Virus record (IMG/VR): IMGVR_UViG_2684622556_000001
DNA length: 64,000 nucleotides
Origin: an uncultured virus (IMG/VR IMGVR_UViG_2684622556_000001)
Taxonomy: Duplodnaviria; Heunggongvirae; Uroviricota; Caudoviricetes
Strand: one strand, 5' to 3'
Every line of letters begins with the position of its first letter. The first letter of the stretch is position 1. The notes under the pieces were generated by a model. That model was given only the letters and a program-made list of their open reading frames with translations. It had not been told where the DNA came from and searched no databases. This document shows, piece after piece, positions 3,412-62,788 of the stretch. The position numbers and the translations under genes were made by a program.

Positions 3412-3785
3412 CTTCCGCCTGTAGTGATGCGCAGTTGTTCCCGAAGGTCTTCGATCTCTGCTATCAGAAGCGGCATGAGGTCGTCAGCGCTGTTAAGAAA
3501 ATTGGCATCGACCGAGTTATAACCGCATTCGGAGCAGCCCAGGTTGTCTTCGTCCGTTTGAAATCGTGTGACGGCTTCCTTGGCCTCCTTGACTAGGTCG
3601 AAGTCCTGGTTTTCGTCAACGAGCTTTAGCGCTACTTCCAGGGCGCTCGACCAGGAGCGGCAAGGGATAAACCTCTCAGGGCCATCCTGGTAGGGCCTAT
3701 AGACGCCCCATCGTGGATGGTTCACTCCATTGAGGTAGTAGTAACTGTTCGGTATGCGGCGCACCCGAAATCGCAAGTCGCTCAT
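3408..3785 (-). CDS. Hypothetical protein (125 aa), cargo of 44-nt element A
   Basis: ATG is the last triplet of element A; CxxC motif and coiled C-terminus. Confidence 0.7.
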   Translation of the reverse strand: MSDLRFRVRRIPNSYYYLNGVNHPRWGVYRPYQDGPERFIPCRSWSSALEVALKLVDENQDFDLVKEAKEAVTRFQTDEDNLGCSECGYNSVDANFLNSADDLMPLLIAEIEDLREQLRITTGGR

Positions 3786-3826
3786 CCCTCAATTATCCGG
3801 CGTTTCAACCGGAGTCGCGGTGTCTA
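3783..3826 (-). promoter_or_regulatory. 44-nt stop-to-start element, copy A
   Basis: TAGACACCGCGACTCCGGTTGAAACGCCGGATAATTGAGGGATG. Confidence 0.8.
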
Positions 3827-4846
3827 GACGGCCACCACTTGCTTCCGTTTCTTCAATGCCAGTGCGCGTTTCTCCACAATGAACCAGCTCATCGCCGCCA
3901 GCGGAAGGGTTAGCAAGGTCGCCAGAATGAAGAACGGGAACACTCCGAGTGTTCCGAGGCCGATGATGACGAGTAGCTGTTGGATGGGGAAGGCGTAGAT
4001 GTACACCCCGTAGGAGAGGTCGTTGCGCAGGTTCGGGCGTTTGAGCATAGCGCCGGACGCTATGACGAGGTACGCCAAGGGGATTGCTGCCAACACCCGA
4101 TAATTCGGTAGCAGCCCGGAGATAAGCACCACTCCTGCTGCTAAGGCGATGAGCGACCAGCGGGCGGGGATCTTGTCTTGGTATTGGTAGATCAACGCCC
4201 CAGCCGCGAACATCACCGCGAACCGGGTAACCATCTGGGGGATGGTCTGCATCGCGAACGCCGGATACCCGAACACCGCCGTCCCACACAGTGCGAGCAC
4301 GAAAGCTACAGGGATGGTCGAGCGGTATTTCAGTAGCCCTGTGACGCCGAGGATGGCGACGAAGATGTAGCAGCCCATCTCAAAGGTGAGGGTCCACAAA
4401 GACCCATTCCACACCCCCGGCCACGGAACATCCTGAGGCGTCCCACCAATCCCCGGGTAGAAGGGGTTCAGTAGGCCACCGTTGATGATGTAGGCCACCG
4501 CCGACATGGGGCTGGGCATCGTCCCGTGCTTGATCCACACACTTACCGGTGCGATCACAAACGCGGTGATCAGTAGGCACACCCACAACCCGGGAAAGAT
4601 CCGTAGGCAGCGGGCGGTGAAGTACGTCTTCGGATTAGGGTGCCGCATCCAACTGGACGTGATCAGGAACCCCGATACCGCGAAGAACCCATCCACCCCC
4701 ACTTGCGAGAGCAGTTGAGTGATCGGCCTGGCGGGGATCTCATGGCCAGTCAGTGGCCAGGTGTGCCACAGGATCACAGACGTGGCCAGGATTAGTCGCC
4801 ATGCGTTGAGCGCGTTGTTGCGTGGGTCGAATACGCGTCCGAGCAC
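3824..4846 (-). CDS. Acyltransferase family 3 (OafA/YrhL-like membrane O-acyltransferase)
   Basis: R..LA..V...H, GVDGFFAVSGFLIT, RCLRIFP, NGSLWTL..E, SYGVYIY, SWFIVEKR; about 10 TM helices. GTG 4846 has GGAGG upstream (ORF extends to 4894). Confidence 0.9.
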   Translation of the reverse strand: MLGRVFDPRNNALNAWRLILATSVILWHTWPLTGHEIPARPITQLLSQVGVDGFFAVSGFLITSSWMRHPNPKTYFTARCLRIFPGLWVCLLITAFVIAPVSVWIKHGTMPSPMSAVAYIINGGLLNPFYPGIGGTPQDVPWPGVWNGSLWTLTFEMGCYIFVAILGVTGLLKYRSTIPVAFVLALCGTAVFGYPAFAMQTIPQMVTRFAVMFAAGALIYQYQDKIPARWSLIALAAGVVLISGLLPNYRVLAAIPLAYLVIASGAMLKRPNLRNDLSYGVYIYAFPIQQLLVIIGLGTLGVFPFFILATLLTLPLAAMSWFIVEKRALALKKRKQVVAV

Positions 4847-5065
4847 TTCCCCTCCAGGGCTTGGTGATTGGACGATACGCCGGTTCAAGATCACCCCGCA
4901 GGAAAATTCTCAGCTTTGGACGCACCTACTACGCTTGTAGTGGGACCTTGATTCGTCTACCGGTAATTCTCCGTACCCCTTCCGTTCAACTGCGAGGCGG
5001 GTGTAATCTACGTCACACGCGCCGGGGCGTGGACCAAATCCCATATCGTTCAAAGGCTTTCGGCG

Positions 5066-5794
5066 ATGCATGCTGCCCTCATCATCTTTACTATCGCAAC
5101 CATCACATGGTCGCTATGGATAAGAAGACTCACGTGGACATGCAATCAAGAGTTAGCCGCAACACTCAACATCGCGTTGCAGGGCGGCGCGGTAATACTA
5201 ATGAGCCCGATCGCCTCCGAGACGGCTGGCCAGCTTCTATACAAGTGGACCAACATGCACAACCTGGAAGATCTGATCGCGCACGACCTCTACATCATCG
5301 CAGCCTCGGCCATCATCATCGATGCCCTCTATCGCCTTGAGATCGATCTGCATGAGAAATTCCATAAGTTCGTTGAGCTACCCGCCCTGCTCGTAATACC
5401 CGCGCTGCTAACGTTCTTCACGTCAGGGGATGCAGTCAAGTCCTATCGGGAAGACTTCTTTCGACTGCCCGTCACGGACGCGTGGATGATGGCCTACTGG
5501 ACCATCCTGTGTGGCGTTCTCGGATACCTGCTCGCGTACTCCATGAGAGCACTGGTACCCCTTTGGCGTGAGCGGGAAAGCCGCATCATCGCCACTGTGT
5601 ACATGATCGCCACGGCCTTCGGCGTAACCGCATGCGGTGCCCGCATGGTGACCGCGCAACTACCCTTCCAAGATCAAGACACTATGTGGGCCAGCCTGCT
5701 CGTGTGGGCGCCAGCGGCTCTCTGTGGCGCGATCTTCGCCGCCGCGGCAGGTCAGTCTTGGATGCGGCAGACAAACATGCTTATCTCCGCTTAA
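5066..5794 (+). CDS. Integral membrane protein (about 7 TM), function unknown
   Basis: 242 aa of alternating hydrophobic helices; convergent with and overlapping the repressor 3' end. Confidence 0.75.
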   Translation: MHAALIIFTIATITWSLWIRRLTWTCNQELAATLNIALQGGAVILMSPIASETAGQLLYKWTNMHNLEDLIAHDLYIIAASAIIIDALYRLEIDLHEKFHKFVELPALLVIPALLTFFTSGDAVKSYREDFFRLPVTDAWMMAYWTILCGVLGYLLAYSMRALVPLWRERESRIIATVYMIATAFGVTACGARMVTAQLPFQDQDTMWASLLVWAPAALCGAIFAAAAGQSWMRQTNMLISA

Positions 5795-6218
5795 GGGATG
5801 CCCGTGATACCGACTTGGACCGGCGGTCCTCCTGGTCTTGACTCGCTTCGCGCGGTGCTCGCGAAAGCGAGCGCATCTGCTCCAAGGTTGACAGCAGGAT
5901 GGCGCGGTCCTTGTCGGAGAGACTGGTATCGAGTCGGATCGCTTGCTCTGGGGTGACGTTCTCGTAGGCGGGCAGCACAAACCCCATTGCCTCGAAGGCT
6001 GCGACAGCAATCTGGGACGGTGCGACCCGTAGGGCGGCCGACAGTTCGTAGATGTTCTCGCGCTTGATTGAGTCGAGCTGACCGCGCAGCCGCGAGATGG
6101 TTGATTTGGATACGACATAGCCCTGCTCCTCAGCGTTCCGTGCCAGGGCCGTGTCCGACCAACCGTTGGCGCTCTTTACGCCTTCGATGAGCTGGTCGAG
6201 TCGATGCCTGGTGGCCAT
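5781..6218 (-). CDS. Immunity repressor (XRE-type HTH)
   Basis: GWSDTALAR...VSKSTISRLR...LSAALRV HTH; divergent from Cro. Start 6218 or 6233. Confidence 0.75.
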   Translation of the reverse strand: MATRHRLDQLIEGVKSANGWSDTALARNAEEQGYVVSKSTISRLRGQLDSIKRENIYELSAALRVAPSQIAVAAFEAMGFVLPAYENVTPEQAIRLDTSLSDKDRAILLSTLEQMRSLSRAPREASQDQEDRRSKSVSRASLKRR

Positions 6219-6245
6219 GTCTTCACCGTCCAACTTAAGTGGTCG

Positions 6246-6424
6246 TCCTGTCCACCGGGCTGGGCACTGCCGAAACCCGACGGGTGGGCACTAATAAATG
6301 TCGTCGTTGCACGTCAATACTTGCAGGTCGGGAGCTATCTCGCAAAACACATCTGTGTAATTCGTTGCATGTTGGGCACCGACTATGATTTGATGGACAG
6401 GAAAGCTGGACACTATGGACAGGA
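6246..6424. promoter_or_regulatory. Lysis/lysogeny switch region with repeated putative operators
   Basis: TGGACAGGA at 6246-6254 (-), 6394-6402 and 6416-6424; TGGACAC at 6407; TGGGCAC at 6261, 6285 and 6373. Confidence 0.55.
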
Positions 6425-6431
6425 AGGTGTA

Positions 6432-6752
6432 ATGTCTCCCACATCCCAGAAGAACCAACTTGGCGAGGTGTACATGTACGTCAGGGATCCCAAGAAGATC
6501 GTCCGCCTGATGATCTGCCAAGAGGTATCGCAGCGTGAAGTGTCGACAGCCGCGGGATGGAAGTCCCATTCCTATCTAGGCCGCATCCTCCGCGGCGAGG
6601 TACGCACACTGGAGACCGACCCGGCGCTCCGCATAGCCCACTTCCTCAAGGTGCCCGTCGATGATCTTTTTGCAACCAAAGTGGACAACAAAACTGTCCG
6701 TAGTGAACAAGAAAAAAGTCGAGGTGCGCGGCGCGTTCGGAGGGTGGCATGA
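6432..6752 (+). CDS. Cro-like HTH protein
   Basis: VSQREVSTAAGWKSHSYLGRILRG...IAHFLKVPVDDLF; RBS AGGAAGG before ATG 6432. Confidence 0.8.
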   Translation: MSPTSQKNQLGEVYMYVRDPKKIVRLMICQEVSQREVSTAAGWKSHSYLGRILRGEVRTLETDPALRIAHFLKVPVDDLFATKVDNKTVRSEQEKSRGARRVRRVA

Positions 6753-7081
6753 GTATCGCCATATTCCCCGTAACGCCGGACATTGCCCAGCAGTGGATCG
6801 ACCGCACAGACCCTAATGAAGTAGCCCAGGCTAGCCCTGCGCATGTTCGACACTATGCGGAGGTCATGGCCAGGGGTGATTGGATGAGGCCCGCTAAGTC
6901 CTCGCCAATCTTGATTGCGGCCAACGATACGAGCGTCATAGACGGCCTACGCCGACTCTTGGCAGTCATCAAGGCTGACGTGCCGGTGAAAATGTATGTA
7001 GCCGAAGTTCCTGGCATTACCAGGTCTGGATTGCGTGCATTTCGATTCGCGGGAGAGTTGCGACGGATGGCCAACTCATGA
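6749..7081 (+). CDS. ParB/Srx-fold-like protein
   Basis: VTPDIAQQW...YAEVMARGDW...PILI...VIDGLRRLLAV, a variant of IDGQHRL. Confidence 0.6.
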   Translation: MSIAIFPVTPDIAQQWIDRTDPNEVAQASPAHVRHYAEVMARGDWMRPAKSSPILIAANDTSVIDGLRRLLAVIKADVPVKMYVAEVPGITRSGLRAFRFAGELRRMANS

Positions 7082-7914
7082 CCGTAATACTGACCGGCGA
7101 AGTGGTCGAGAAGCTTCCATCGGAGGTTGAGAGCAAGGTAGTGGCTCTTCGGCGGCTTGATGGAGATTCCCAGGCGGCAGCTGTGACGGTGATGCTCTCA
7201 CACTCCCGCACGGGATTGTTGGCCGCTATTGCGGCGCAAGATCTTCCGCAGATAGTGGAGTGGAAAGCCAAGGCGTCCGCCATATCCGAGGTCGCCAAGC
7301 AGTTGCGTCTCGGCAAGGACATTCAGCAGGAAGCTGCGGAATTTGTGCGTCGCGCCGAACGTGGACTAGGTGTAGGCATCCGCGAAGGGCAGGCGCGGGG
7401 AGAGGTAGAGACTTGCAACGAGGGGAAGGCGCGGGGAAGCCTAGTTAGGGATCAAGTCGTAACTTACGACAAGGTCAAGCCAAAGCCCACAGACTTCGCA
7501 AGTAAGCACGAGTTGACAAACACCCACGGGGGAATCTACGACCTCGCCGACGGTGTCTCGGACGAACAGTTTGAAGAGGCGATAACCGAGGCTCGCGCAG
7601 AGGGAAACCTGTCTCGCGCCAACGTGGCCCGTAAGTGCAAGGACAAAGCCCGGGCCGTAAGGGAAGTCGTAGATGCCGACGATCCGCTTATCGATGCCGC
7701 CGCGGCCGAGCCTGTCACAACCAAGTGGCCTTTCCGTAACTCGCCCACCGAGTTCCTGGCTGAGATCACCGGCAGCATTGCGGCATTCGCCGAAAACATC
7801 AAATGGATAACCGCCGGTTCGGTTGAGTCTGGCGAGCTGGAAACCCTCACTAAGCAAGCACGTGATGCGTGGTCACGAATCAACAAGCACCTCAAGGAGA
7901 TAAACAATGTCTAG
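7078..7914 (+). CDS. Hypothetical phage protein (278 aa)
   Basis: Coupled ORF; helical, contains the AAEFVRRAERGLG segment. Confidence 0.75.
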   Translation: MTVILTGEVVEKLPSEVESKVVALRRLDGDSQAAAVTVMLSHSRTGLLAAIAAQDLPQIVEWKAKASAISEVAKQLRLGKDIQQEAAEFVRRAERGLGVGIREGQARGEVETCNEGKARGSLVRDQVVTYDKVKPKPTDFASKHELTNTHGGIYDLADGVSDEQFEEAITEARAEGNLSRANVARKCKDKARAVREVVDADDPLIDAAAAEPVTTKWPFRNSPTEFLAEITGSIAAFAENIKWITAGSVESGELETLTKQARDAWSRINKHLKEINNV

Positions 7915-8704
7915 GCCCGAGCGCATTGAGTTCACTTCCCATATCGGATGGGTGCGCCTTGATGAAATGAAGGTGAGCCCGGTTGCGCAGCGCGCATTGA
8001 ATCAGGCGTGGGTGGATCGGCTCAGCGCAGAATTCAATCCAGACGTGATGGGCATGCTGCATGTATCTCACCGTGATGGCTGGTACTACGTTATCGACGG
8101 TCAGCACCGTCGAGCCGCAGCCATTCAGTGGATGGGTTCAGACCAGCAGGTGCAGTGCCACGTCTACAACGGACTGAATTCCGCCGACGAGGCCAATCTG
8201 TTCTTGCGCCTAAATTCCGTCAAGGCGCAGACCCCAATGTCAAAGTACAAGGTTGCACTGACCGCTGGTCGCCCCGTCGAAACCGACATCGATCGTATCG
8301 CCCGATCTGCCGGTCTAGTGATTGGACTGAGCAAGGATCTCGAGGAAATCGGTTGCGTCACTGCACTGATCAACACCTACAACAAGTCTGGTCCGGGTTC
8401 ACTCGCCTTCGCCCTCCGGGTAATCCGGGACGCATATGGGTACGACGGATTCCAGCGCGACCCGATCGCCGCACTAGCCCTCATAAAGGACCGCTACGGC
8501 GATGCCATAGAAGAGGACAAGCTGGTCATGCGGCTCAACAAAATAGGCATCGTGGAGCTGCGGCGTGAAGCGCGCAAGTGGAGGGACACCACCGGAAACC
8601 CTGGCGCGCAATGCTTCGCGCACGCCATGATCACCTTCTATAACCGTGGAAATGGCAAGCGTGTCGACCCCTGGTGGAACCTCGGGATTGTGGGTGTGGC
8701 ATGA
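7907..8704 (+). CDS. DGQHR/ParB-fold protein (DUF6551-like)
   Basis: AQR.L...WV, YYVIDGQHRR, EANLFLRLN. Confidence 0.75.
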   Translation: MSRPERIEFTSHIGWVRLDEMKVSPVAQRALNQAWVDRLSAEFNPDVMGMLHVSHRDGWYYVIDGQHRRAAAIQWMGSDQQVQCHVYNGLNSADEANLFLRLNSVKAQTPMSKYKVALTAGRPVETDIDRIARSAGLVIGLSKDLEEIGCVTALINTYNKSGPGSLAFALRVIRDAYGYDGFQRDPIAALALIKDRYGDAIEEDKLVMRLNKIGIVELRREARKWRDTTGNPGAQCFAHAMITFYNRGNGKRVDPWWNLGIVGVA

Positions 8705-8892: not shown

Positions 8893-8950
8893 ATCCGGCC
8901 ATGACGAAGAAACTGGAGCCGACCAAGGCCCCAAGGCCCAACGTCGCGCG

Positions 8951-19061: not shown

Positions 19062-19345
19062 CAACCCAAGCAGTAACAGACATCAAAGAACTCGTAGGAG
19101 AAATGCCAGCGAGGGGATGTGAGTGCCGGATCCATGGCTGCAACGGCAGGCAGCATGCCATGAATGCATGCGATCACCAGGCTGCGTGGTCGGCACTGGT
19201 TCATGGCATGGACCACACCGGCCATGGAGACTTCGAGCTCAATCTGTGCGACCGATGCCTAGACACCGCGGCGAGCATCGCGGACTTCACGGGCGAGTGC
19301 CGCGTCTGCGGTAACGGGTATGCGCTGCGGGTGATGCCGCTATGA
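19058..19345 (+). CDS. Cys-rich hypothetical protein
   Basis: Several CxxC motifs; coupled ORF. Confidence 0.65.
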   Translation: MTTQAVTDIKELVGEMPARGCECRIHGCNGRQHAMNACDHQAAWSALVHGMDHTGHGDFELNLCDRCLDTAASIADFTGECRVCGNGYALRVMPL

Positions 19346-22769: not shown

Positions 22770-22950
22770 CTACCAAGACACCGGTAGCCGACGGAAACCT
22801 ACGGCATACACCGAAACAGGGGCCGCTGAGCGGGTGTGCCCGGACTGTAGTGCCCCAGAAGGGCATCCCTGTAGATGGATAGCCATGGATGGGCAGGGGG
22901 ATTTGGGGAAACCAAGGCATTGGCCGCATGAGACACGTTGGAGGCGTTAG
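22762..22950 (+). CDS. Small zinc-finger protein
   Basis: CPDCSAPEGHPC...PHETR. Confidence 0.55.
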   Translation: MTDYQDTGSRRKPTAYTETGAAERVCPDCSAPEGHPCRWIAMDGQGDLGKPRHWPHETRWRR

Positions 22951-23246
22951 TGAGAAACATTCACCCCGGACCAAGAATCATAGACGGTGGCGCCGACATG
23001 TGGTCCATCAACCACGAGCCCTGGACCGAACAAGCCCTTTGCCCCGAGACAGATCCCGAGTTGTTTTACCCAACCCCGGGTAGTCCGGGGAGGACGATGG
23101 CCAAAGCTGCGAAAGCGATTTGTGCTCAATGCCCGGTCGCTGCCGAGTGTCTGGAATACGCCTTCAGGGCTAATGAAGAGTACGGGATTTTTGGTGGGGT
23201 CACCGCCCATGAGCGAATGGTGATGAAGCGGGGGAGGGCAAGCTGA
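22950..23246 (+). CDS. whiB: WhiB-family transcriptional regulator
   Basis: ALCPETDPELFYP...AKAICAQCPV..ECLEYA...GIFGG. Confidence 0.9.
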   Translation: MRNIHPGPRIIDGGADMWSINHEPWTEQALCPETDPELFYPTPGSPGRTMAKAAKAICAQCPVAAECLEYAFRANEEYGIFGGVTAHERMVMKRGRAS

Positions 23247-23560
23247 TGCCGCACTCAAGCCCTACCGACTGGATAGCAGGCGGAAGTGTTGCCGCAGACA
23301 TCGTTGGATGCCTCACGGGTTTGGTCGCGGACCTGTCGTGGCAAGACGAAGCGGCGTGCCGTGGACTCCCTACGGAGTGGTGGTTCCCAGATCAAGGCGC
23401 CAGCCGGGAATCTAAGAGGGCCAAGGAAATCTGCCACGGCTGCCCTGTCAAACTCCAATGCCTCCAATTCGCGATAGAGGTACACGACCAGCACGGTATT
23501 TACGGGGAGCTGTCATTGAAGGACAGGCGTAGGTGGAACCAGGAAAGGAAAGCGGGCTAG
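23246..23560 (+). CDS. whiB: WhiB-family transcriptional regulator (second copy)
   Basis: WQDEAAC...WWFP...AKEICHGCPVK.QCL.FA...GIYG. Confidence 0.9.
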   Translation: MPHSSPTDWIAGGSVAADIVGCLTGLVADLSWQDEAACRGLPTEWWFPDQGASRESKRAKEICHGCPVKLQCLQFAIEVHDQHGIYGELSLKDRRRWNQERKAG

Positions 23561-23601
23561 ACACCGCGACTTGTCCTGAAACGGAGGATAATTGAGGTAT
23601 G
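23558..23601 (+). promoter_or_regulatory. 44-nt stop-to-start element, copy B
   Basis: TAGACACCGCGACTTGTCCTGAAACGGAGGATAATTGAGGTATG. Confidence 0.8.
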
Positions 23602-23922
23602 GGCACATTACCTGATGCAGTACCACAGATGCCCGCATGTGGTGCTTGCGGCGGCGAGACTAGATCTGACGGCGAGCACTTCTATTGCGAATACTGCCTA
23701 CTTGGATTCGCGCCCATCACACTAATTGCATTCTTCCTTGATCCCAATGCCGAAACATGTGGGGCTCCATGTGACAACAGCTGGCACGGCGACCACAGAA
23801 TCCGGCAAGGGTGGGGCTATGACTGTGGATCGTGTGGGCTCCCTGCCGGTCACGAATCGATGCATTGGACCAACTGTCAACCGAAGCAACTGGCGGCAAT
23901 TCCCGGAGGTAGTGAGAGTTGA
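23599..23922 (+). CDS. Cys-rich protein, cargo of element B
   Basis: CGAC, CEYC, CGSC.LPAGH...H. Confidence 0.7.
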   Translation: MGTLPDAVPQMPACGACGGETRSDGEHFYCEYCLLGFAPITLIAFFLDPNAETCGAPCDNSWHGDHRIRQGWGYDCGSCGLPAGHESMHWTNCQPKQLAAIPGGSES

Positions 23923-25734: not shown

Positions 25735-25815
25735 GAACCCATAGTACTTTTATAGTCCAAATTGTGTCAACCGCATTATCTGTACAAATTGTACAAACCA
25801 TGTTACGCTACCAAC
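25735..25815. promoter_or_regulatory. Divergent leaderless promoters with paired TGTACA operator
   Basis: Minus strand TTGACA-N18-TACTAT-N6-ATG; plus strand TACGCT-N6-ATG (25816); TGTACA-AAT-TGTACA at 25781-25795. Confidence 0.7.
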
Positions 25816-26076
25816 ATGTACGAGGTAGAGATCACCGAGAGCGCCACCAAGGAATTGGTGCGCATCAAGCGGGCCGATGGCAAGCTGCACCGCCAAATCC
25901 TCGACGCCCTCAAAGGTCTCGCCACCGACCCACGCCCGCATGGCTACATCAAACTCTCAGGCCGTGATGGCTACCGGATTCGCGTCCGCGACTACCGCAT
26001 CCTCTACAGCATTGACGACGGCAAGCTGCTCATCCTCGTGGTGAAGGTGGACAAACGCGGCCAGGTCTACAGGTGA
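25816..26076 (+). CDS. relE: RelE/ParE-family toxin
   Basis: MYEVEITESATKEL...LATDPRPHG..KLSG..GYRIRVRDYRILYSI...RGQVYR. Confidence 0.9.
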   Translation: MYEVEITESATKELVRIKRADGKLHRQILDALKGLATDPRPHGYIKLSGRDGYRIRVRDYRILYSIDDGKLLILVVKVDKRGQVYR

Positions 26077-26359: not shown

Positions 26360-26680
26360 GTGATCCGGTGCCGCATCGGCTGGCATCACTGGGAGAAATG
26401 GCGCCTCAATAAGCGCTTCATCGACACCTCATGGGACTGCGAAATCCCCTCGGCGCAGTACAAGCGCTGCTGCATCCGCTGCGGTAAGCCGCAAACCGAG
26501 TCCATCCGCGACTTCTCCTGGATACGCACCCACGATCTGCACTGGATAGCAGTAGTGCAGGTTGAAGCCCAATCGGAGAACGAAATGTCATCGGTGACGA
26601 TGACATTGTGGCTGTCGCCGAAGATGTTCCAGTTGGACAGACCCGAGGGTTTCTACGAGCCGTACCGGAGACGGTTGTAG
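26360..26680 (+). CDS. Hypothetical protein
   Basis: C.IG.H.W...R.C.RCGK motif; its TAG begins element C. Confidence 0.6.
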   Translation: MIRCRIGWHHWEKWRLNKRFIDTSWDCEIPSAQYKRCCIRCGKPQTESIRDFSWIRTHDLHWIAVVQVEAQSENEMSSVTMTLWLSPKMFQLDRPEGFYEPYRRRL

Positions 26681-26721
26681 ACACCGCGACTTCCGCTGCA
26701 GCTCGGTAAAATTGAGGTATG
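26678..26721 (+). promoter_or_regulatory. 44-nt stop-to-start element, copy C
   Basis: TAGACACCGCGACTTCCGCTGCAGCTCGGTAAAATTGAGGTATG. Confidence 0.8.
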
Positions 26722-26952
26722 GATGATCCCATTGAAGTCGCTGAGGCGGTGTGTAAACGGCACAACTGGGACGGCATGATGTTTTGCGCTTGCACTGCCG
26801 CTGCTCGTGAAGCTTTGAAGCGAGTGGGCGCCGATCTGCAATCCGTCGATGGCGTCTTAGGTCTGCTTCATCATCGAGGGCTTGTTGACTCCGAGCGCAA
26901 TAGAGCTGATGTGAAAGCTGCCCTCGAAATCGTACAGAGGTACACCCGATGA
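26719..26952 (+). CDS. Hypothetical protein, cargo of element C
   Basis: MDDPIEVA...AAAREALK resembles the 20529 family. Confidence 0.7.
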   Translation: MDDPIEVAEAVCKRHNWDGMMFCACTAAAREALKRVGADLQSVDGVLGLLHHRGLVDSERNRADVKAALEIVQRYTR

Positions 26953-27224
26953 CTGAACCATCTCAAGCCCATATAGACCGGGCACGTGAACTCGGCCTCT
27001 CTTTCGATCCTTCTGATACATCGGATGAAGAGTTAAGCCGTGCTATCGCAACGTATGAGCGGGTTTACATCGAGGCGATGACCGAGAATGCTGGTAGGGA
27101 CACTGATACTCCTACTGAGCGCCGCAAGATGCTGGGCGTATGGACTCAGCGCGATGAAGAAGAGGCCAAGGAAGCCGCTGAACGGCGGCGGATGTTCGGC
27201 TCCCGACGAATCCCACCCGCCTAG
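26949..27224 (+). CDS. Hypothetical protein
   Basis: ATGA-coupled; its TAG begins element D. Confidence 0.65.
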   Translation: MTEPSQAHIDRARELGLSFDPSDTSDEELSRAIATYERVYIEAMTENAGRDTDTPTERRKMLGVWTQRDEEEAKEAAERRRMFGSRRIPPA

Positions 27225-27265
27225 ACACCGCCGATCCCGTTGAAACACGGGATAATTGAGGTATG
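27222..27265 (+). promoter_or_regulatory. 44-nt stop-to-start element, copy D
   Basis: TAGACACCGCCGATCCCGTTGAAACACGGGATAATTGAGGTATG. Confidence 0.8.
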
Positions 27266-27595
27266 GAAGACGCGCAAGAATTACTTGCAAGGGCCGCCGA
27301 GAAACATCGACCATATGGGCTGGACTGCAAATGCGGCCGACCGATCAACAGCGACGCGGACTGGTCAAGACACCTTGCCGCCGAGATCGCCGATTTTGTC
27401 TATCTCCGCGTGGACACGGAAGAGAAACTAAAGGACGTCTACCCCCAGTCGGTAATCCTGGACGCCGACGGTGATTTGTACGCCATGGATGAGTACGGGC
27501 ACGCCGTGCTTCTCACAGGCTGGAAGGGCATGCCCTATGAGCCACCGGCGCTCCCGGCTAGAGTCCTCTGGTCCCCGGACAGTTCGTCCAGGTAG
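27263..27595 (+). CDS. Hypothetical protein, cargo of element D
   Basis: H...CKCG...H motif; SVILDADG...LPARVLWSP. Confidence 0.7.
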   Translation: MEDAQELLARAAEKHRPYGLDCKCGRPINSDADWSRHLAAEIADFVYLRVDTEEKLKDVYPQSVILDADGDLYAMDEYGHAVLLTGWKGMPYEPPALPARVLWSPDSSSR

Positions 27596-57883: not shown

Positions 57884-58296
57884 CAGACCAGATTCGTAAG
57901 TGGTACTACCTCATTGGCGCGGCAGCTCTGTCGATTATTCCCATCTTGGTCACTTCGGGTGTGGTCAGTGACACGGTCGGGCAGTCTTGGGTCAACGCGG
58001 TCATCGCCATTGGTGGCGTCTTCGGCGTGGCCGGTCTCGGGACAGCGGGCGTGGTGCTGCACAAGCAGATCAAGAACGCCCCCGGTGCTGCAGCGGACAA
58101 GGCCGTGACCAGCTTGCAGGACATCCAGGCGCAGCTGAACTCCACCGCGCAGGCCGCGCAGGACCAGCTTGCCGCCGCCACCCAGGTTGCCGTGGACAGC
58201 ATCACCAAGATTCAGGCCACCGTAGGCAATGTCGTCGGCCCGCAGGTTTCCCTCGGCCCGCTGGCTGCCGAGGTCATCAAGAGCGTGACTGAGTGA
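57880..58296 (+). CDS. Holin
   Basis: Two N-terminal TM helices; between lysin A and lysin B. Confidence 0.75.
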   Translation: MTDQIRKWYYLIGAAALSIIPILVTSGVVSDTVGQSWVNAVIAIGGVFGVAGLGTAGVVLHKQIKNAPGAAADKAVTSLQDIQAQLNSTAQAAQDQLAAATQVAVDSITKIQATVGNVVGPQVSLGPLAAEVIKSVTE

Positions 58297-59261
58297 TCCT
58301 CACCCTCGGTTCCCATGGGGAGGTAGTAGCGAGGTGGCAGCGGGTCATGTTGGCCCGCTACGCCTCCTACGCGAAAGCCGCTGACGGGGGACCGCTGAAG
58401 GTTGATTCGTATTTCGGGTACGACGACCAGGCGGTCCAGAAGGAATACCAGCGCCGCACAAACCAACCCCAGACGGGCGAGGTTTCTCAAGCGGATCTGG
58501 TGAAGCTGGGTTTGACGCCGCTGTTCTTCACGGTCGAGGGACATCTGTCCGACATGTTTGTCGGGCCTTGCGCTTTCGTGGCCTCTACTTTGGAGCGTGA
58601 AGGGCGGGCGGTGTGGCGGCCCACCGGCTACGACAACGTACGGCTGCCGTTCAACAACCAGTCCGGTGTGGACGAACTCGTGAACCGTTTGGATACTAAG
58701 CTGTTTGATGACGGCACACCATTCCCCGAAGGAACGCCGTGGAATCTGGCGATCTTCAGCCAGGGTGCGATGGTTGGCTGCGAGGTCATGGAAAAGCATG
58801 TTCTACCCGTCAATGGCAGGTTGCATTACCGGCTGAAGGACTTCCGCAAGGGCATAGCTTTCGGGAACCCCTACCGCCTGATCAACCAGTGCGCCCCTTG
58901 GGTTCCCGACCCGCCCCAGCCCAACACTCAGGGGATCATGGACTGGCACTTTGACTTCCTGAAATACCCCGAGCTGGCGGGGAAGTGGCAAGAGCATGCC
59001 CGCACCCGCGACTGGTACGCCGAGAACCGGTTGGATGAAGCCGGGGTCAACATGACAGCGATAGCCCGCATAATCACCCAATCCTCGTGGACCGGTGGGG
59101 CTTCCTCGATAGTGGCCCGAATCATGGACCTCTTCATCAACCCATTCGACGGGCTGATCGACATCGTATGGGCCATCGTGCGGACCTTCCAAGGCATCGC
59201 CCATCTGGAAGCCCACGGGACGTACGACCTGAATCCAGTCCTCGACTGGTTCCGCGCTTAG
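58293..59261 (+). CDS. Lysin B (cutinase-like esterase)
   Basis: N-terminal peptidoglycan-binding-like domain; FSQGA, FGNP, D.YA, H..Y. Confidence 0.88.
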   Translation: MILTLGSHGEVVARWQRVMLARYASYAKAADGGPLKVDSYFGYDDQAVQKEYQRRTNQPQTGEVSQADLVKLGLTPLFFTVEGHLSDMFVGPCAFVASTLEREGRAVWRPTGYDNVRLPFNNQSGVDELVNRLDTKLFDDGTPFPEGTPWNLAIFSQGAMVGCEVMEKHVLPVNGRLHYRLKDFRKGIAFGNPYRLINQCAPWVPDPPQPNTQGIMDWHFDFLKYPELAGKWQEHARTRDWYAENRLDEAGVNMTAIARIITQSSWTGGASSIVARIMDLFINPFDGLIDIVWAIVRTFQGIAHLEAHGTYDLNPVLDWFRA

Positions 59262-59476
59262 CCCCTAAGCCAACGCTGCACCGTGTTGGTGGATCGGTTA
59301 ATTAGCGCGGCAATCTCCCGCACTGAGCCTCCGGCGGCTTTCGCTTCACGGACAGCGGCGCGGAGGTCTTCTGTGGCCATGTCGGCTTGTGTGGCGGCTG
59401 CGAGCAGCCTGGATCGTTGAGGCTCGGGGGTTTCTCCCCGCCTCAACGCTTTCCATCCAACTGAAGGTCGGCCCAT
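59258..59476 (-). CDS. Small HTH protein
   Basis: G.SVREIAALINRSTNTVQRWLR; true start may be the TTG at 59446. Confidence 0.7.
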   Translation of the reverse strand: MGRPSVGWKALRRGETPEPQRSRLLAAATQADMATEDLRAAVREAKAAGGSVREIAALINRSTNTVQRWLRG

Positions 59477-59616
59477 GCCTTCAGGAGGTCTGTGTACTTT
59501 TCGTATGGAACAACGATTGCCACCGGCTTTTCGTCGCCGACGGCGATCGGGTAGTCACTCCCACCCTTGATCGCTTTCCACAGGTTATCTATGTCGATTT
59601 CCGGCAAGTCTGGCAT
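59443..59616 (-). CDS. Small Phd/YefM-like protein, leaderless
   Basis: PIAV....KPVAIVVPYEKY..L; TACAAT-N6-ATG upstream. Confidence 0.55.
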   Translation of the reverse strand: MPDLPEIDIDNLWKAIKGGSDYPIAVGDEKPVAIVVPYEKYTDLLKAWADLQLDGKR

Positions 59617-59711
59617 GTCTCGATTGTAGCGCTTATCGCTACGGTGTGACACCCCAAATCCAACAACTGAATAGAGCCCTCGAAGCGCCCCATGAAAGGC
59701 GGTTCAAACAA

Positions 59712-59930
59712 ATGTCCATCCGAGATCTACTCACTGAGCGATCCAAGCCAAAGCCAGCGGTATGTACCACATGCCAATGGTTCGCAACTCAGCCAGAAGA
59801 TGAGCAGGCTGCAGCCAAAGAATGGGCGGCGGCAGGCTTCTCCAGCGCGGAGTTGTGGCGCGGCATAAGGGAGTTGGGGTATCCATTGGGCGAGGCAGCA
59901 TTACGCCGCCATTTCAAGGAATGTAGTTGA
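59712..59930 (+). CDS. Small Cys/His protein
   Basis: CTTC.W...LRRHFKEC; RBS GAAAGG. Confidence 0.65.
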   Translation: MSIRDLLTERSKPKPAVCTTCQWFATQPEDEQAAAKEWAAAGFSSAELWRGIRELGYPLGEAALRRHFKECS

Positions 59931-61123
59931 GTATCCGCGACAGCCTGAACAAGCGGCGTCCCGTGGCCGAGGAGTCGGCGCCGGAGCAGGCGAAGATGCG
60001 TGCGGAGTGGGACGGCACCGCTGGATTCATTCAGACCGGCAAGGTCTCAGATGACTTCGACGAGCAGGACTTCGAGGGCATCCTTCGCGAGTTCGCCGAC
60101 GAACTGCACTACGACCCAGCCAAGGTTGAGATAGCCGGTAACCCACAGGTCGTGGTGTGGGAGACAGGCTTCCGCAACAAAGATGGGGAGTGGGAGAAGC
60201 ACAAGCACCACTCATGGCGCTATCACCTCGCTGTGCGGCGCTGGGCTGTCGACCTACCCGCCTTGTATGCGGAGGTCCGCAGAACCAAGCCGGTGCAGCC
60301 GAAGAAACCCACAGGTGAATCAACGGTTGTGGTGTGCTGGGCTGATATTCAGACCGGGAAGGTCGACCACCTCGGCGGTGTCAAAGAGCTGTTGCTGCGC
60401 CTTCAGGAAAAGCGGGAAAACCTGAATGCCTACCTGAAACGTTCAAGGTTCGATCGCATCATCATCGCGGACGTGGGTGACATTGTGGAGGGCTTCGACA
60501 ATGTAACAGCCCAAACCCGCACCAACGGACTATCTCTCATGGATCAGGTCGAGGTCGCCGCCACGGAGTTCTGGAAGACCATCACCCTGTGCGCCAAGCA
60601 TGCCCCCGTGGATGTGCTGTCCATCCCGTCCAATCACGGCCAGTGGCGGCGTGGAAAGGATCTGATCGGGAAGCCCACCGATGACTGGGGATTGGCTATT
60701 TCTAAGCGTCTTGAATGGCACAATAACCCCGACAACCAGGGCCCGAATCTGCCGGTAGAGTTCCACCGGCCGCCCGAGTGGTGCGAGACGCTGCAGTTCG
60801 ATGTACGCGGCACCAGGTTAGGACTGGCGCACGGCCACCAAGCCTCCGGTGCTGACCGGGTTAAGACGTGGTGGGAGAAGATGACCCACGGCGGCGTTAT
60901 GGACTGCCACGTCCTGCTGACTGGACATTTCCACTACGCCAGCCTCCGGCCACATGGGCGGGATCAAGTCACAGGTAAGGCGCGCTGGCACATCCAAGCC
61001 TCAACCCTGGACAACGGTTCAGCGTGGGTGATGAACAAGATGGGCGAAGACGGAGATCCGGCATTGACGGTGTTCCAGATCAACAACGACGGCTTCGACG
61101 TACAGAGCTTTGCACTCCTTTGA
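59927..61123 (+). CDS. Calcineurin-like metallophosphoesterase
   Basis: AD.Q.GK, GDIVEG, SNHG, AHGH, TGHFH. Confidence 0.8.
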   Translation: MSIRDSLNKRRPVAEESAPEQAKMRAEWDGTAGFIQTGKVSDDFDEQDFEGILREFADELHYDPAKVEIAGNPQVVVWETGFRNKDGEWEKHKHHSWRYHLAVRRWAVDLPALYAEVRRTKPVQPKKPTGESTVVVCWADIQTGKVDHLGGVKELLLRLQEKRENLNAYLKRSRFDRIIIADVGDIVEGFDNVTAQTRTNGLSLMDQVEVAATEFWKTITLCAKHAPVDVLSIPSNHGQWRRGKDLIGKPTDDWGLAISKRLEWHNNPDNQGPNLPVEFHRPPEWCETLQFDVRGTRLGLAHGHQASGADRVKTWWEKMTHGGVMDCHVLLTGHFHYASLRPHGRDQVTGKARWHIQASTLDNGSAWVMNKMGEDGDPALTVFQINNDGFDVQSFALL

Positions 61124-61148
61124 TACCCACTGATACTTGGGAGCCGCG

Positions 61149-61373
61149 ATGAGTGAACACCCCGACGAACTCATGCAGAAGTACGTCGAAGCGATGGATC
61201 AAGAACCCGGCTGGCGGGTATCAGATTTCGTGCTCATGGTCGGTTTCGAGAGAGTCCAAGCGGACGGCACCATAGAGCACACCTACGGCGTGTATGAAGG
61301 TGAGAACCAATCGACCTGGGCTACACACGGTTTAGTCGCCAACGGTATAGAACACCTAGAACGAACTGAGTGA
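61149..61373 (+). CDS. Hypothetical protein
   Basis: RBS GGGAG; W.V.DFVL...Q..W...GL. Confidence 0.65.
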   Translation: MSEHPDELMQKYVEAMDQEPGWRVSDFVLMVGFERVQADGTIEHTYGVYEGENQSTWATHGLVANGIEHLERTE

Positions 61374-61376
61374 CTA

Positions 61377-61694
61377 TTACTGGCTGTTCCAGTGGGCTAG
61401 GTCTTCATCGTCGATCAGTGTGACGACGATCTGAGCGATTCGCTCGTCGCTCTCGTCAGTGCCGTAGTCCACGATCCACGCCCAGATGTCGTAGCCGCCG
61501 TCGCCGAATCCTGCCGAAAACTGCACCCCGGACCCGTACTTACTGAATAGGTTGTGACCGCTACCGATTCCTGGATACTTGGCCGGAGCAAAAGCGGGGT
61601 CGGTGATCGCGGCCATGGCCGAGTCGACCGAGACGCCGCCGATGCGTTCCCATCGACCGTTGCGGCCCGGGGCTGGTGTTGGTGGTTGACCCAT
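61377..61694 (-). CDS. Hypothetical protein, cargo of element F
   Basis: IG.V.VDSA...I.DP...SAGFGDGGY motif (DUF4241-like). Confidence 0.7.
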   Translation of the reverse strand: MGQPPTPAPGRNGRWERIGGVSVDSAMAAITDPAFAPAKYPGIGSGHNLFSKYGSGVQFSAGFGDGGYDIWAWIVDYGTDESDERIAQIVVTLIDDEDLAHWNSQ

Positions 61695-61735
61695 CCCTCA
61701 ATTTTACGGCGCTACAGCAGTATCCACGGGGTCTA
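61692..61735 (-). promoter_or_regulatory. 44-nt element, copy F
   Basis: TAGACCCCGTGGATACTGCTGTAGCGCCGTAAAATTGAGGGATG. Confidence 0.75.
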
Positions 61736-61739
61736 ACTG

Positions 61740-61925
61740 TTACGTCCGAGGGTCATCCGACTTTCGGGTGAATAAAAACTGGCGTCCACAATCCTCACTC
61801 GGACAAACGGCAACATCGCCCCATGCATGACGTGACGGCGGAACTTCTGTGACACGGGCAAGACTTGGCCCGCACCGATCGATTTGCCCGGCCAGATCGC
61901 ATGCCGCACATTCGGGGTTGGTCAT
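61740..61925 (-). CDS. Small Cys-rich protein (61 aa), cargo of element E
   Basis: MTNPECAAC...CPSEDCGRQF. Confidence 0.65.
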   Translation of the reverse strand: MTNPECAACDLAGQIDRCGPSLARVTEVPPSRHAWGDVAVCPSEDCGRQFLFTRKSDDPRT

Positions 61926-61967
61926 ACCCTCAATTATCCGGCGTTTCAACCGGAGTCGCGGTGTTTA
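61923..61967 (-). promoter_or_regulatory. 45-nt element, copy E (38 bp identical to copy A)
   Basis: TAAACACCGCGACTCCGGTTGAAACGCCGGATAATTGAGGGTATG. Confidence 0.8.
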
Positions 61968-61998
61968 GGCCCCGCGCGAGGAGAGCGCGCAGGGAACT

Positions 61999-62022
61999 AG
62001 CGCACTGTACCGTGCGCTTTTT
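61999..62022 (+). terminator. Intrinsic terminator
   Basis: AGCGCAC-TGTACC-GTGCGCT followed by TTTT. Confidence 0.65.
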
Positions 62023-62106
62023 CAGATGTATCCGGCAGAACGCCCAAATCCGGGCTTCTACCTGCGTGTTTCTTTTTCATCCACAACCTAATCGGGGAGG
62101 GTTCCC

Positions 62107-62349
62107 ATGGCTTTACATCCATCTGATTGGGCGTGGATCACTATGGCTGCTGGGATCGTCGCCTACGAGATAGCTTGCCCACCGGGGGAGCTGCTATCGG
62201 ACGCCACTACCCGCTACGGGCAGTCCCACATGTTCCTCAGCTCCGCCGTGATCGGAGTAGTGGCCGTACATCTGCTGCGCACCACCGGACTGCTTCGGTT
62301 CATCCCTGAACAGCTCGACCTAATCCATTTGTTGGCTTCACTGAAATGA
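62107..62349 (+). CDS. Small membrane protein
   Basis: AW.......YE..CP.GELLS; two hydrophobic segments; RBS GGAGG. Confidence 0.7.
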   Translation: MALHPSDWAWITMAAGIVAYEIACPPGELLSDATTRYGQSHMFLSSAVIGVVAVHLLRTTGLLRFIPEQLDLIHLLASLK

Positions 62350-62411
62350 GAGGACACCGCTATGTGCAGAGTTGAGACTTGGAAGTGTGGCCTGCCGACT
62401 GGTACTCCGCG

Positions 62412-62747
62412 GTGAATGTGGCTGAGGTAGTCGGCTTGATCGCTGGCTCATCGCTCCTGTCCTCGCTTGGTGTCGCACTCCTTTCCCGCAAGAGCAACAC
62501 CTTCTCCAAATTCACCGAAGCCTATGAAGCCCTCGCTGATCGGGTGACCAAGCTTGAGGAGAAGCTGGAAACCGTAGAGGGTGCGCTCGAGGTTGAGCGT
62601 GACCAGCACTCAAAGGCCCGCGATCTACTGCGGATTGCGCTGCGCTACATCCGCGATGTTCTTTCCTGGGGGGTGGGAGACCGCGCCCATCCGCTACCTG
62701 AACCGCCCCCGGAGCTCTTTCGGCACCTCGAGCAGCAAGACTCCTAG
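62412..62747 (+). CDS. Membrane protein with coiled coil
   Basis: N-terminal TM helix, coiled coil, PxPP tail; ORF extends to 62379; its TAG begins element G. Confidence 0.65.
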   Translation: MNVAEVVGLIAGSSLLSSLGVALLSRKSNTFSKFTEAYEALADRVTKLEEKLETVEGALEVERDQHSKARDLLRIALRYIRDVLSWGVGDRAHPLPEPPPELFRHLEQQDS

Positions 62748-62788
62748 ACCCCGCCGTTAGCGCTTACCGCCAATAGAATTGGGGTATG
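62745..62788 (+). promoter_or_regulatory. 44-nt stop-to-start element, copy G
   Basis: TAGACCCCGCCGTTAGCGCTTACCGCCAATAGAATTGGGGTATG. Confidence 0.7.

Follow-up and report, generated by a model that had tools for sequence, protein, structure and literature searches.

The window analysed here, a 64,000-nucleotide stretch of DNA, comes from a Cluster MabA prophage of Mycobacterium abscessus and holds seven copies of a short element that runs from a stop triplet, at the head of a 5' box, through 20 variable bases (N20) to a hexamer, a 3' box and the ATG of a small gene. The existence of this stop-to-start family is confirmed: the sequence-only reading that first pointed it out was correct in the coordinates, strands and sequence of the seven 44-base copies, which align without gaps save for one extra base in copy E. 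In this alignment 20 columns do not vary, and identity per column averages 81%. When a position weight matrix (PWM) built from the seven copies was run over the window, only these seven sites exceeded 12 bits (scores of 44–63 bits), and the 3' box AATTGAGGNATG, allowing at most one mismatch, was matched six times against 0.76 expected, a count reached by none of 100 shuffles. The ATG opens a small ORF (61–125 aa) in 7/7 copies, and in five of them (A, B, C, D and G) an upstream ORF (356, 104, 106, 91 and 122 aa, respectively) does end on the initial TAG. Copies A, E, F and G lie close to the prophage ends, and B, C and D within the early region. A further exact 5' box, solitary and without a -10, lies inside an ORF at 19260-19270.

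Each copy was compared over 40 bases with copies whose transcription start sites (TSSs) are verified in G001, the nearest genome used for transcript evidence, the prophage of which is a 99.998%-identical copy of the relative prophiGD17-2. Copy A (3783..3826, minus strand; PWM 63.0 bits) is made up of the 5' box TAGACACCG, N20, GATAAT, TGAGGG and ATG, and is 2/40 bases off its verified counterpart at G001 1756936. Its TAG ends an Acyl_transf_3 (atf-like) acyltransferase gene (3824..4894, minus strand; PF01757, E = 2.8e-29), the relative's orthologue of which acetylates glycopeptidolipid according to the part of PMC10400925 drawn on here; its cargo (3408..3785, minus strand; 125 aa) has no Pfam match and a weak match to a PHROG of unknown function. 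Copy B (23558..23601, plus strand; 62.2 bits), 5/40 bases off its nearest verified copy, takes its TAG from a second WhiB gene (23246-23560, plus strand; Pfam E = 7.1e-19) and heads a 107-aa gene (23599..23922, plus strand) that matches phrog_36479 (unknown function) at E = 2e-37. Copy C (26678..26721, plus strand; hexamer TAAAAT; 62.4 bits) shares its TAG with the ORF at 26360-26680 (plus strand) and matches the verified copy at G001 1778637 (TSS value 1808) in all but 2/40 bases. Its 77-aa cargo (26719..26952, plus strand) is 98.7% identical to the G001 protein encoded at 1778637-1778873, for which there are 74.9 RPKM of RNA, 21.3 RPKM of ribosome footprints and 4 peptides. Copy D (27222..27265, plus strand; 63.4 bits), 2/40 bases off the verified copy at G001 1779496, abuts the ORF at 26949-27224 (plus strand), the stop of which is the module's TAG, and heads a 110-aa gene (27263..27595, plus strand; phrog_2021, unknown function, E = 3.4e-6).

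Copy E (61923..61967, minus strand) begins with TAA, has no in-frame upstream ORF and, with its extra base, places 7 nt between hexamer and ATG; it is 3/40 bases off a verified copy, shares its N20 type with copy A, and heads a 61-aa gene (61740..61925, minus strand) with no Pfam or PHROG match. Copy F (61692..61735, minus strand; hexamer TAAAAT; 58.8 bits) is at least 9/40 bases off any verified copy, through its N20. Its 105-aa cargo (61377..61694, minus strand) is 99% identical to the G001 protein starting at 1814774, where the ATG is a mapped TSS (value 733.5; RNA 36 RPKM). Copy G (62745..62788, plus strand; 5' box TAGACCCCG, hexamer TAGAAT; 47.6 bits) takes its TAG from the ORF at 62379-62747 (plus strand), equals the verified copy at G001 1815646 in 40/40 bases (TSS value 736), and heads a 94-aa gene (62786..63070, plus strand) with no Pfam, PHROG or PADLOC match. 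Overall, one window copy is identical to a verified copy and five differ from one by 2–5 bases, a resemblance from which the window copies would be expected to act as those of G001 do.

Geometry and transcription of the element

Nine relatives of the window prophage carry 7–9 elements per genome, and a 74%-identical relative has six with both boxes kept; elements are found on either strand and at each end of the prophage. The window and the nine relatives together supply 78 copies, 43 of them distinct. In all 78 hexamers the second base is A and the sixth is T, the gap to the start codon being 6 nt in 65 copies and 7 nt in 13; the start codon is ATG in 76 and GTG in 2. The invariance claimed for T20 holds among the seven window copies, but not in the 43 distinct copies, where it falls below 90%. 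The distance of 23 nt given for TAGACA and the hexamer was right: the 5' box holds a -35-like word, but at 23-bp spacing. No distinct copy has a -35-like hexamer at 15–22 bp (0/43) or the TG of an extended -10 (0/43). A plain -10-only promoter therefore does not account for how strictly the 5' box and the 6-nt distance from -10 to +1 are conserved.

Leaderless-promoter geometry had been proposed, and mapping in the relative agrees with it. The G001 prophage has eight copies, and published dRNA-seq places a TSS on the A of the ATG in 8/8 (PMC4974804, supplement 1), with a 5'UTR length of 0 for all seven copies entered as primary TSSs (PMC4974804). TSS values range from 165.5 to 1887.5, reaching 733–1887 for TANNNT hexamers (TAAAAT, TAGAAT) versus 165–508 for GATAAT. 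The promoter strings printed in the TSS table are the element itself for all copies but one. The exception is the primary TSS of MAB_1812c (1814774), for which the table prints a wrong string; this site was checked in G001's own sequence. RNA levels step up at the elements (2.1 to 13.9, 0.9 to 46.3 and 3.1 to 9.1 RPKM; PMC4974804, supplement 2); the genes just upstream are nearly silent, and the structural genes of the prophage stand at 0–0.7 RPKM in the lysogen. Ribosome footprints lie downstream of the elements, and peptides are recorded for four genes of the block. An independent stranded RNA run from 2026 gave an RNA-strand depth of 0.7–2.1 before the first element, 5–7 after it and 15.7 past the second, with a depth of 0 across the structural genes. 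Because of low depth, no start peaks were called at the elements in the raw-read RNA run. The RNA runs contain at most 9–16% of the window prophage's sampled words.

These data bear on whether the conserved GAGG-containing box might instead serve translation, as the ribosome-binding site of an initiation element like the SAS of Cluster K, carried on read-through mRNA. The box does sit immediately 5' of the ATG, a position analogous to that of the SAS, but its GAGG ends only 1–2 nt before the ATG, too near for a Shine-Dalgarno sequence. The lysogen mRNA begins at the ATG, so that the box falls outside the transcript, and the SAS consensus with two mismatches occurs once in the window against 1.5 expected. 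Such a role is very improbable, and for the lysogen it is already contradicted by the TSS data.

We consider it very probable that the element is a self-contained leaderless SigA-type promoter module heading small accessory genes. Host RNA polymerase (SigA-type) would read each 44–45-nt element as a promoter, with the hexamer (G/T)A(T/A/G)AAT as the -10 and, at a distance of exactly 6 nt (in some copies 7), the A that opens the ATG as +1. With +1 at that base, the small gene would be transcribed, and its message translated, with neither leader nor Shine-Dalgarno sequence, and the abutment of the module on the preceding stop codon would produce the fixed stop-to-start junction. We infer that SigA is the sigma factor and that no phage factor is needed. 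The promoters would be active in the lysogen beside nearly silent upstream and structural genes and, since they would fire in an otherwise near-silent prophage, the genes they head may act as morons, that is, as prophage-expressed accessory genes. A common M. abscessus prophage family would in this way keep its accessory genes on, with the remainder of the prophage silent.

The upstream box and the dyad

The 5' box, the dyad or both could bind a factor of host or phage origin (an activator, anti-silencer or conditional repressor) that tunes all copies, which is compatible with the promoter reading; we think this possible, but would not bet on it. The box, TAGAC(A/C)CCG, shows little or no variation across the 43 distinct copies and in the 74%-identical relative, and it spans -41 to -33, around which class II activators bind. 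It also occurs at two strong host promoters, in one of them in the identical position, and orthologues of the latter keep a -35-like word 23–25 nt from the hexamer. The dyad shows partial compensatory change, and the analogous inverted repeat of the Cluster K ESAS is suspected, in the part of PMC11373665 drawn on here, to bind a regulator. However, no factor was identified, and two host matches among 7,218 TSSs are about the number expected by chance. The N20 and its dyad vary in sequence and are therefore unreadable by one sequence-specific dimer; the TSS-proven copy at 1773427 is nearly without a stem, and the phage WhiB gene beside copy B is nearly silent (2.1 RPKM) when the promoters are active. 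Of the regulon suggested by the sequence-only reading, co-expression of the copies in the lysogen stands, and a dedicated factor would be conjectural. The box is present at only two other mapped host promoters.

The dyad described within the N20 likewise survives in part, being limited to a partial tendency of a single register, in which columns 13–19 pair with 26–32 in 66.8% of cells versus 56.0% in shuffles (0/500 shuffles reach this). The TTGTCCT/AGGATAA register is at the level of shuffles (52.8% vs 53.3%), and the inner palindrome is a weak one, with similar covariation when its partners are shifted by +2 or -3 columns. Mean MFE of the N20 is -6.08 versus -4.27 kcal/mol in shuffles (0/200 reach it), with short stems (mean longest Watson-Crick run 3.9 bp) in registers that differ between copies. 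A dyad that terminates, insulates or is processed in read-through RNA, making the cassette independent of the upstream operon, would fit this better-than-shuffled folding and the compensatory change in one register, and classical morons have a terminator in addition to their promoter. Yet the short stems, in their differing registers, are followed by no U-tract, and a hairpin here would stand before, not behind, its own cassette. The upstream genes are silent in the lysogen, and the data are therefore uninformative on termination. We regard an RNA role for the dyad as unlikely.

Cargo reassortment and recombination

The idea of a portable promoter before variable cargo was upheld: the elements head 36 cargo families, and N20 type is incongruent with both flanks. 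One upstream gene may be followed by 2–5 cargo families, and one cargo may stand behind differing upstream genes. At least two cargo families are found with 7/19 N20 types and at least two upstream contexts with 6/19; in four genomes the same N20 type occurs twice, as in window copies A and E. The 44-nt architecture is preserved in every combination of N20, flank and cargo. Such reassortment, and the sharing of N20 types across cargo families, contexts and single genomes, would be expected if the conserved ends were short homology handles through which the homologous recombination of phage or host moves cassettes of promoter and gene from one prophage or locus to another in exchange. This needs no dedicated recombinase and is compatible with the promoter reading, but we put it forward tentatively, as the less probable case. 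Change-points of 53/53 discordant distinct pairs fall at motif coordinates 0, 10–15, 27 and 38–46, with one at 53, as handles would predict; because shared boxes force box-edge change-points in unrelated cassettes, however, the count is not independent evidence. Nor was a special recombination hotspot at the element borne out: homology blocks of prophiGD11-1 end at 5/6 element junctions versus 39/76 ordinary junctions (Fisher p = 0.21), 98/107 window block ends are distant from elements, and the genomes are few and related.

A site-specific cassette system with a dedicated recombinase, using integron-like attC sites or REP/HUH-type single-stranded DNA hairpins, is highly doubtful. Arrays of an element with one or two small genes, varying cargo and the dyad tendency of the N20 recall such systems. 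Against them, neither an integron integrase (IntI) nor a Y1/HUH transposase was found among the 40 larger ORFs of the window, where the sole recombinase match is a phage tyrosine integrase at the prophage end. The element length is fixed at 44–45 nt, the stem is weak and often missing, every cassette is equipped with a promoter of its own, just the reverse of the integron case, and the copies are spread over the two strands and the two prophage ends, not gathered in one array beside an integrase. The interpretation first attached to the family is partly supported.

Relation to known systems

Integron attC arrays resemble the MabA elements in that small cassettes are split by a repeated element with some dyad symmetry; they differ in that the MabA cassettes are promoter-bearing, fixed-length in their element, dispersed on both strands and without IntI among the 40 larger ORFs. 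Cluster A stoperators, as far as the source material drawn on goes, are also short asymmetric intergenic motifs, oriented with transcription and often at stop/start junctions, but they bind the immunity repressor and silence transcription, whereas the MabA elements are active in the lysogen. The stoperator consensus has 5 matches in the window versus 4.05 expected, which is chance level. As with morons, cargo is present, absent or replaced at the same position between related prophages, and each cassette has its own promoter and is expressed in the lysogen beside silent neighbours; classical morons each have an unrelated promoter and terminator, whereas the MabA cassettes share one promoter module.

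Mycobacterial leaderless SigA promoters have a -10 TANNNT 6–8 nt upstream of the A or G with which the start codon begins. The MabA module matches them in hexamer, spacing, mapped +1 on the ATG and ribosome footprints on leaderless mRNAs. Ordinary ones are individual sequences, whereas the module is repeated 6–9 times per prophage and has an invariant upstream box, a conserved TGAGG discriminator and a fixed stop-codon abutment.

The proposal that this was not a described element holds within the literature searched, but a module of the same kind is in print: the ESAS of Cluster K, described with the SAS by Pope 2011 (PMC3203893) and reinterpreted for Adephagia in 2024 (PMC11373665). In the parts of these papers drawn on here, the ESAS is a conserved intergenic module (46–47 bp), with about seven copies per temperate mycobacteriophage genome, that precedes small non-structural genes of differing families; it combines a putative SigA-like promoter with an inverted repeat, expression during lysogeny is described for some of the genes behind it, and the upstream stop codon is sometimes within the motif. 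The two sequences are unrelated, and the window lacks the SAS consensus. In those same parts, ESAS -35 and -10 hexamers are 17–18 bp apart, whereas the MabA element has no -35 at canonical spacing, and a 13-bp SAS with AGGAG 3–9 bp before the start codon lies between ESAS and gene, so that ESAS genes are leadered, whereas MabA transcription starts on the ATG. The ESAS repeat is there conserved in sequence, whereas the MabA dyad varies, and its promoters are described as putative, whereas MabA promoter activity is mapped in a relative. The MabA module is useful, yet not a new kind of element, and the Cluster K ESAS is its closest described analogue.

Seven copies and their wider family

The seven copies reported by the sequence-only reading, A (3783-3826, minus strand), B (23558-23601), C (26678-26721), D (27222-27265), E (61923-61967, minus), F (61692-61735, minus) and G (62745-62788), were confirmed in the sequence at these positions and on these strands, and their common alignment holds over 44 columns, 20 of which are invariant, with a single extra base in E. 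Each copy runs from a 5' box through a variable 20-nt stretch (N20), a hexamer and a discriminator to the ATG of a small gene, its cargo, which is an ORF of 61-125 aa in all seven. The first TAG, proposed to be the stop codon of the preceding gene, ends the upstream ORF in A, B, C, D and G, as had been claimed. With a position weight matrix (PWM) built from the seven copies, these score 44-63 bits and no other site of the 64-kb window exceeds 12 bits. Allowing up to one mismatch, the 3' box has six matches in the window versus 0.76 expected. A lone exact 5' box (11/11 bases) lies within an ORF at 19260-19270 (plus strand), with neither a -10 nor a 3' box.

Bases 1-2236 of the window are host DNA, 97% identical to G001, the genome with the nearest relative prophage, at 1.19 Mb, and carry an AMP-binding enzyme gene (Pfam); attL thus lies near 2236. 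The rest of the window is a prophage akin to prophiGD11-1, phiGD23-1 and others, a group that Table 1 of PMC8092301 assigns to Cluster MabA; that paper describes MabA as the prophage cluster found most often in M. abscessus. A tyrosine integrase gene (phage integrase family, Pfam) at 63172-63999 crosses the right edge, so the prophage extends beyond the window. The stop codon of an atf-like acyltransferase gene (3824-4894, minus) is the TAG of copy A; PMC10400925 reports experiments in which the orthologue of the relative acetylates glycopeptidolipid, and states that roughly half of the MabA prophages have the gene. Two tandem WhiB-family genes (22938-23560, plus) lie directly upstream of copy B, and a ParE-like toxin gene (25762-26076, plus) lies between copies B and C. 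At the equivalent place in the relative, translation is strongest, for the whole prophage, at a toxin-antitoxin pair (1177 and 1658 RPKM of ribosome footprints) that has its own leaderless promoter, which is not of the module type. The provirus record G002 represents the same provirus (its bases 1-36738 equal window 27263-64000) and its first base is that of copy D's ATG (27263).

When copy A was compared by blastn with 50,697 phage records, matches were obtained to 17 records of M. abscessus phages or prophages, and six other records matched partially (E about 3). Nine whole relatives, taken as full sequences and scanned with the PWM, carry 7-9 copies each, in four neighbourhoods: among the leftward genes close to attL, behind the WhiB genes, in a small-gene block at 23-27 kb, and near attR, where copies occur on both strands. 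Including those of the window, 78 copies score above 25 bits, with 43 distinct full sequences. The first triplet is TAG in 74 (TGA in 2, TAA in 1, CAG in 1). In 65 of the 78 copies this triplet terminates an upstream ORF 40 aa or more in length, and these ORFs belong to 16 families. The start codon is ATG in 76 copies and GTG in two, and stands 6 nt (65 copies) or 7 nt (13 copies) from the hexamer, which reads GATAAT (38), TAAAAT (26), TAGAAT (10), GACAAT (3) or AATAAT (1); A2 and T6 are present in 43/43 distinct copies and T1 in 19/43. A more distant relative, G403, 74% identical across the 27 kb that can be aligned, retains six copies with both boxes intact. In prophiGD91-2 (L045 2227-2480, minus), two modules stand in tandem behind an acetyltransferase gene with one 68-aa gene between them, a minimal two-cassette array where the window has one module. 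Among 401 genomes of the family, a search at up to one mismatch returned 17 single near-matches, none above 1.0 bit by PWM. The 50 loci scanned from the species-genome collection all scored 6.9 bits or less, and nine loci from the viral collection included one real match (L114), the other eight scoring at most 6.9 bits.

Leaderless transcription in the lysogen

Mapped start sites and expression steps in the relative establish that the element is a promoter for leaderless mRNAs, active in the lysogen. The prophage of G001, 99.998% identical to prophiGD17-2, has eight module copies. In a published dRNA-seq study (PMC4974804, supplement 1), the TSS falls on the A of the ATG in all eight (8/8), in agreement with the leaderless promoter geometry recognised from sequence. 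Seven are listed as primary TSSs with a 5'UTR length of 0; the remaining one (1756936), listed as secondary, coincides with the first base of a CDS that the study newly annotated. These eight, with TSS values of 165.5-1887.5, are among 29 TSSs on the sheet for the G001 prophage genes. The sheet Primary+Secondary of the same supplement gives an identical 52-mer promoter string for the primary TSS of many multi-TSS minus-strand genes, which looks like a table error; as the printed string is suspect, the minus-strand copy at 1814774 was verified on the G001 sequence instead.

The expression table of that study shows the structural genes at 0-0.7 RPKM in the lysogen and the genes just upstream of elements at 0.9-3.1 RPKM, versus 9-94 RPKM behind elements. 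The WhiB gene of the relative is nearly silent (2.1 RPKM) and the module behind it is active. Genes behind elements show ribosome footprints, and peptides are recorded for four genes of the block. An independent stranded RNA run from 2026 reproduces the expression step over the four-element block at low depth, at which no start peaks were called at the elements. RNA runs for the window prophage contain at most 0.16 of its words, and three contig-kept RNA runs cover the entire stretch examined and are uninformative on transcription. For the window's own copies we infer that transcription begins with the start codon from their likeness to the verified ones: G is identical, the differences from the closest verified copy number 2 bases in A, C and D, 3 in E, 5 in B and 9 in F, and the cargo proteins of C and F are 99% identical to two expressed G001 proteins. 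Dependence on SigA is predicted from the likeness of the hexamer to a -10 and from the higher TSS values of G001 copies with TANNNT hexamers (733-1887) than of those with GATAAT (165-508).

The data that reveal the module's function were published yet unremarked. The main text of PMC4974804 never mentions the prophage, and term queries of the M. abscessus prophage papers PMC8092301 and PMC8092298 did not find the module. The literal 5' box string is absent from the main texts searched (subscription journals and bioRxiv supplements were outside the scope), and no paper searched, again outside subscription journals, names the cargo genes MAB_1766, MAB_1768 and MAB_1812c. An earlier description in print may exist.

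The 5' box spans -41 to -32. A -35-like hexamer (at least 4/6 matches to TTGACA) at 15-22 bp spacing was found in 0/43 distinct copies, and the TG of an extended -10 is absent from all 43. The distance of 23 nt between TAGACA and the -10 was correctly read, and at 23-bp spacing 42/43 copies match TTGACA at 4/6 or better. How a -35-like box at this distance acts in the promoter is a question that the module raises. The proposal of a dyad in N20 survives in part. N20 folds more stably than its own shuffles, and compensatory change is seen in part in a single register (columns 13-19 with 26-32, -29 to -10), where 66.8% of the cells pair versus 56.0% in shuffles and 33-50% with a slid partner. The other two pairings put forward, in the register 14-20/28-34 and in the inner palindrome, are unsupported and were discarded as structures. 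A third of the cells are unpaired in the best register, and one copy with a proven TSS is nearly stemless. Two further ideas, that a cruciform shortens the 23-bp spacer and that an alternative -35 at TTGAAA serves a -10 on the ATG, were dropped because the distances are unsuitable.

Outside the prophage, the 5' box occurs at two host promoters in the TSS table, about the number expected by chance, and both are very strong. At the promoter of an AAA-ATPase gene (G001:C1 about 2175909-2175951; L130 1909-1951) the box starts at -41 and the discriminator is TGAAGC. Orthologous promoters (30 loci of the genus, L133-L161) keep CCGG-TAGC(G/T)T-TG and have a -35-like word 23-25 nt upstream of the hexamer, and many of their discriminators read TGAGGTAT, like the phage 3' box. 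Membership of this promoter in the family was rejected (-2.6 bits by PWM), and its likeness is a lead, not a finding. The second, the leaderless promoter of a phosphoglycerate mutase gene (G001:C1 about 4095875-4095925, minus; L131), matches the 5' box at 12/12 bases and has GATAAG 18 nt after it. Here the box is not conserved, as the upstream region differs in other species of the genus, and it could be a chance occurrence or a remnant of a module. A joint explanation of promoter and mobility can be imagined, which we consider unlikely: the prophage would have copied either a mycobacterial promoter class not yet recognised or the site of some host factor, one that escapes prophage silencing, and its cassettes would be exchanged without an integrase. 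The 5' box would then be a -35-like word 23 bp from the -10, across the dyad, and the long-spacer layout and the discriminator TGAGGTAT would be common to the strong, genus-wide AAA-ATPase housekeeping promoter. The conserved module ends would serve as homology handles by which promoter-plus-gene cassettes are swapped.

Exchange of cassettes and the nature of the cargo

Comparison of orthologous loci, suggested by the sequence-only reading, revealed different cargo behind one upstream gene, and one cargo was also found behind differing upstream genes and N20 types. Seven of 19 N20 types accompany at least two cargo families, six of 19 occur in at least two upstream contexts, and in four genomes a single type is present twice, as with copies A and E of the window. 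Since N20 is incongruent with both flanks and repeated within genomes, the module has moved between loci. The change-points of all 53 discordant distinct pairs lie at motif coordinates 0, 10-15, 27 or 38-46 (one at 53), positions affected by an artefact that forces box edges wherever unrelated cassettes have boxes in common; the N20 incongruence is independent of it. Homology-block ends fall at an element in 9/107 cases in the window versus 0.8 expected by area. The anticipated special breakpoints did not emerge: in prophiGD11-1, a homology-block end is present at 5/6 element junctions and at 39/76 ordinary gene junctions (p = 0.21). This control used the deposited prophiGD11-1 gene coordinates because GC3-based calling left the small early genes of the window unseparated.

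Genes headed by elements behave as morons, their own promoters being active in the lysogen. Cargo is replaced at the same position, with four families found after the acetyltransferase and five after WhiB, and in the relative cargo has its own promoter and is expressed from the prophage amid silent flanking genes (TSS tables, RPKM steps). The block is followed by silent structural genes, but no terminator was located. Of the 36 cargo families, one passes the Pfam cut-off (a DUF), 16 have PHROG matches, all of unknown function, and none (0/36) matches models of anti-phage defence. The module marks which orphan genes of MabA prophages are made in the lysogen and fixes the start codons of the cargo genes. 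Because the genes so marked belong to 36 families with no known function, they form a short list of candidates for effects of the prophage on its host (e.g. defence against other phages or changes in the cell envelope). In addition, the module could serve mycobacterial genetics as a constitutive leaderless promoter of only 44 bp, for which nature supplies variants of differing strength.

Comparison with known systems

The suggestion of an integron-like or HUH/REP-like system was rejected, as no such machinery was found by Pfam among the 40 larger ORFs of the window. Instead of an IntI-type integrase with attI and Pc, the only such match was to the phage integrase family, and a Y1 HUH transposase (REPtron-like) had no match among these ORFs, though one may be encoded elsewhere in the genome. 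Unlike in integron (attC) arrays, no array of elements adjoins the integrase. Integron attC sites have conserved paired R/L boxes and vary in length, whereas the module is fixed at 44-45 nt and its best register pairs at 66.8%. Integron cassettes are promoterless, whereas every module cassette has a mapped or predicted promoter.

Among phage elements, the asymmetric 13-bp consensus of Cluster A stoperators occurs at chance in the window (5 matches versus 4.05 expected), and stoperators silence via the immunity repressor, whereas the module elements are active in the lysogen. In Cluster O phages, leaderless SigA promoters have been predicted, and the 17-bp palindromes of these phages are unrelated. 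A match to an already described start-associated motif was not obtained: the Cluster K SAS consensus has one match, with 2 mismatches and in the host flank, versus 1.5 expected. SAS is a 13-bp consensus 3-9 bp before the start codon, an arrangement the module does not share. ESAS has a -35 and a -10 17-18 bp apart within a conserved 15-17-bp inverted repeat, whereas the module has no such -35 and the sequence of its dyad varies. A 2024 reinterpretation (PMC11373665) treats ESAS as an intergenic module of 46-47 bp, present in seven copies, that combines an inverted repeat with a putative SigA-like promoter, some downstream genes being expressed in lysogeny; a 2025 survey calls the function of ESAS/SAS still unverified. 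The ESAS/SAS system of Cluster K is the closest described analogue, and the feature itself is of a known kind, a promoter module that recurs within the genomes of one cluster of temperate mycobacteriophages, here with a conserved upstream box and evidence of mobility.
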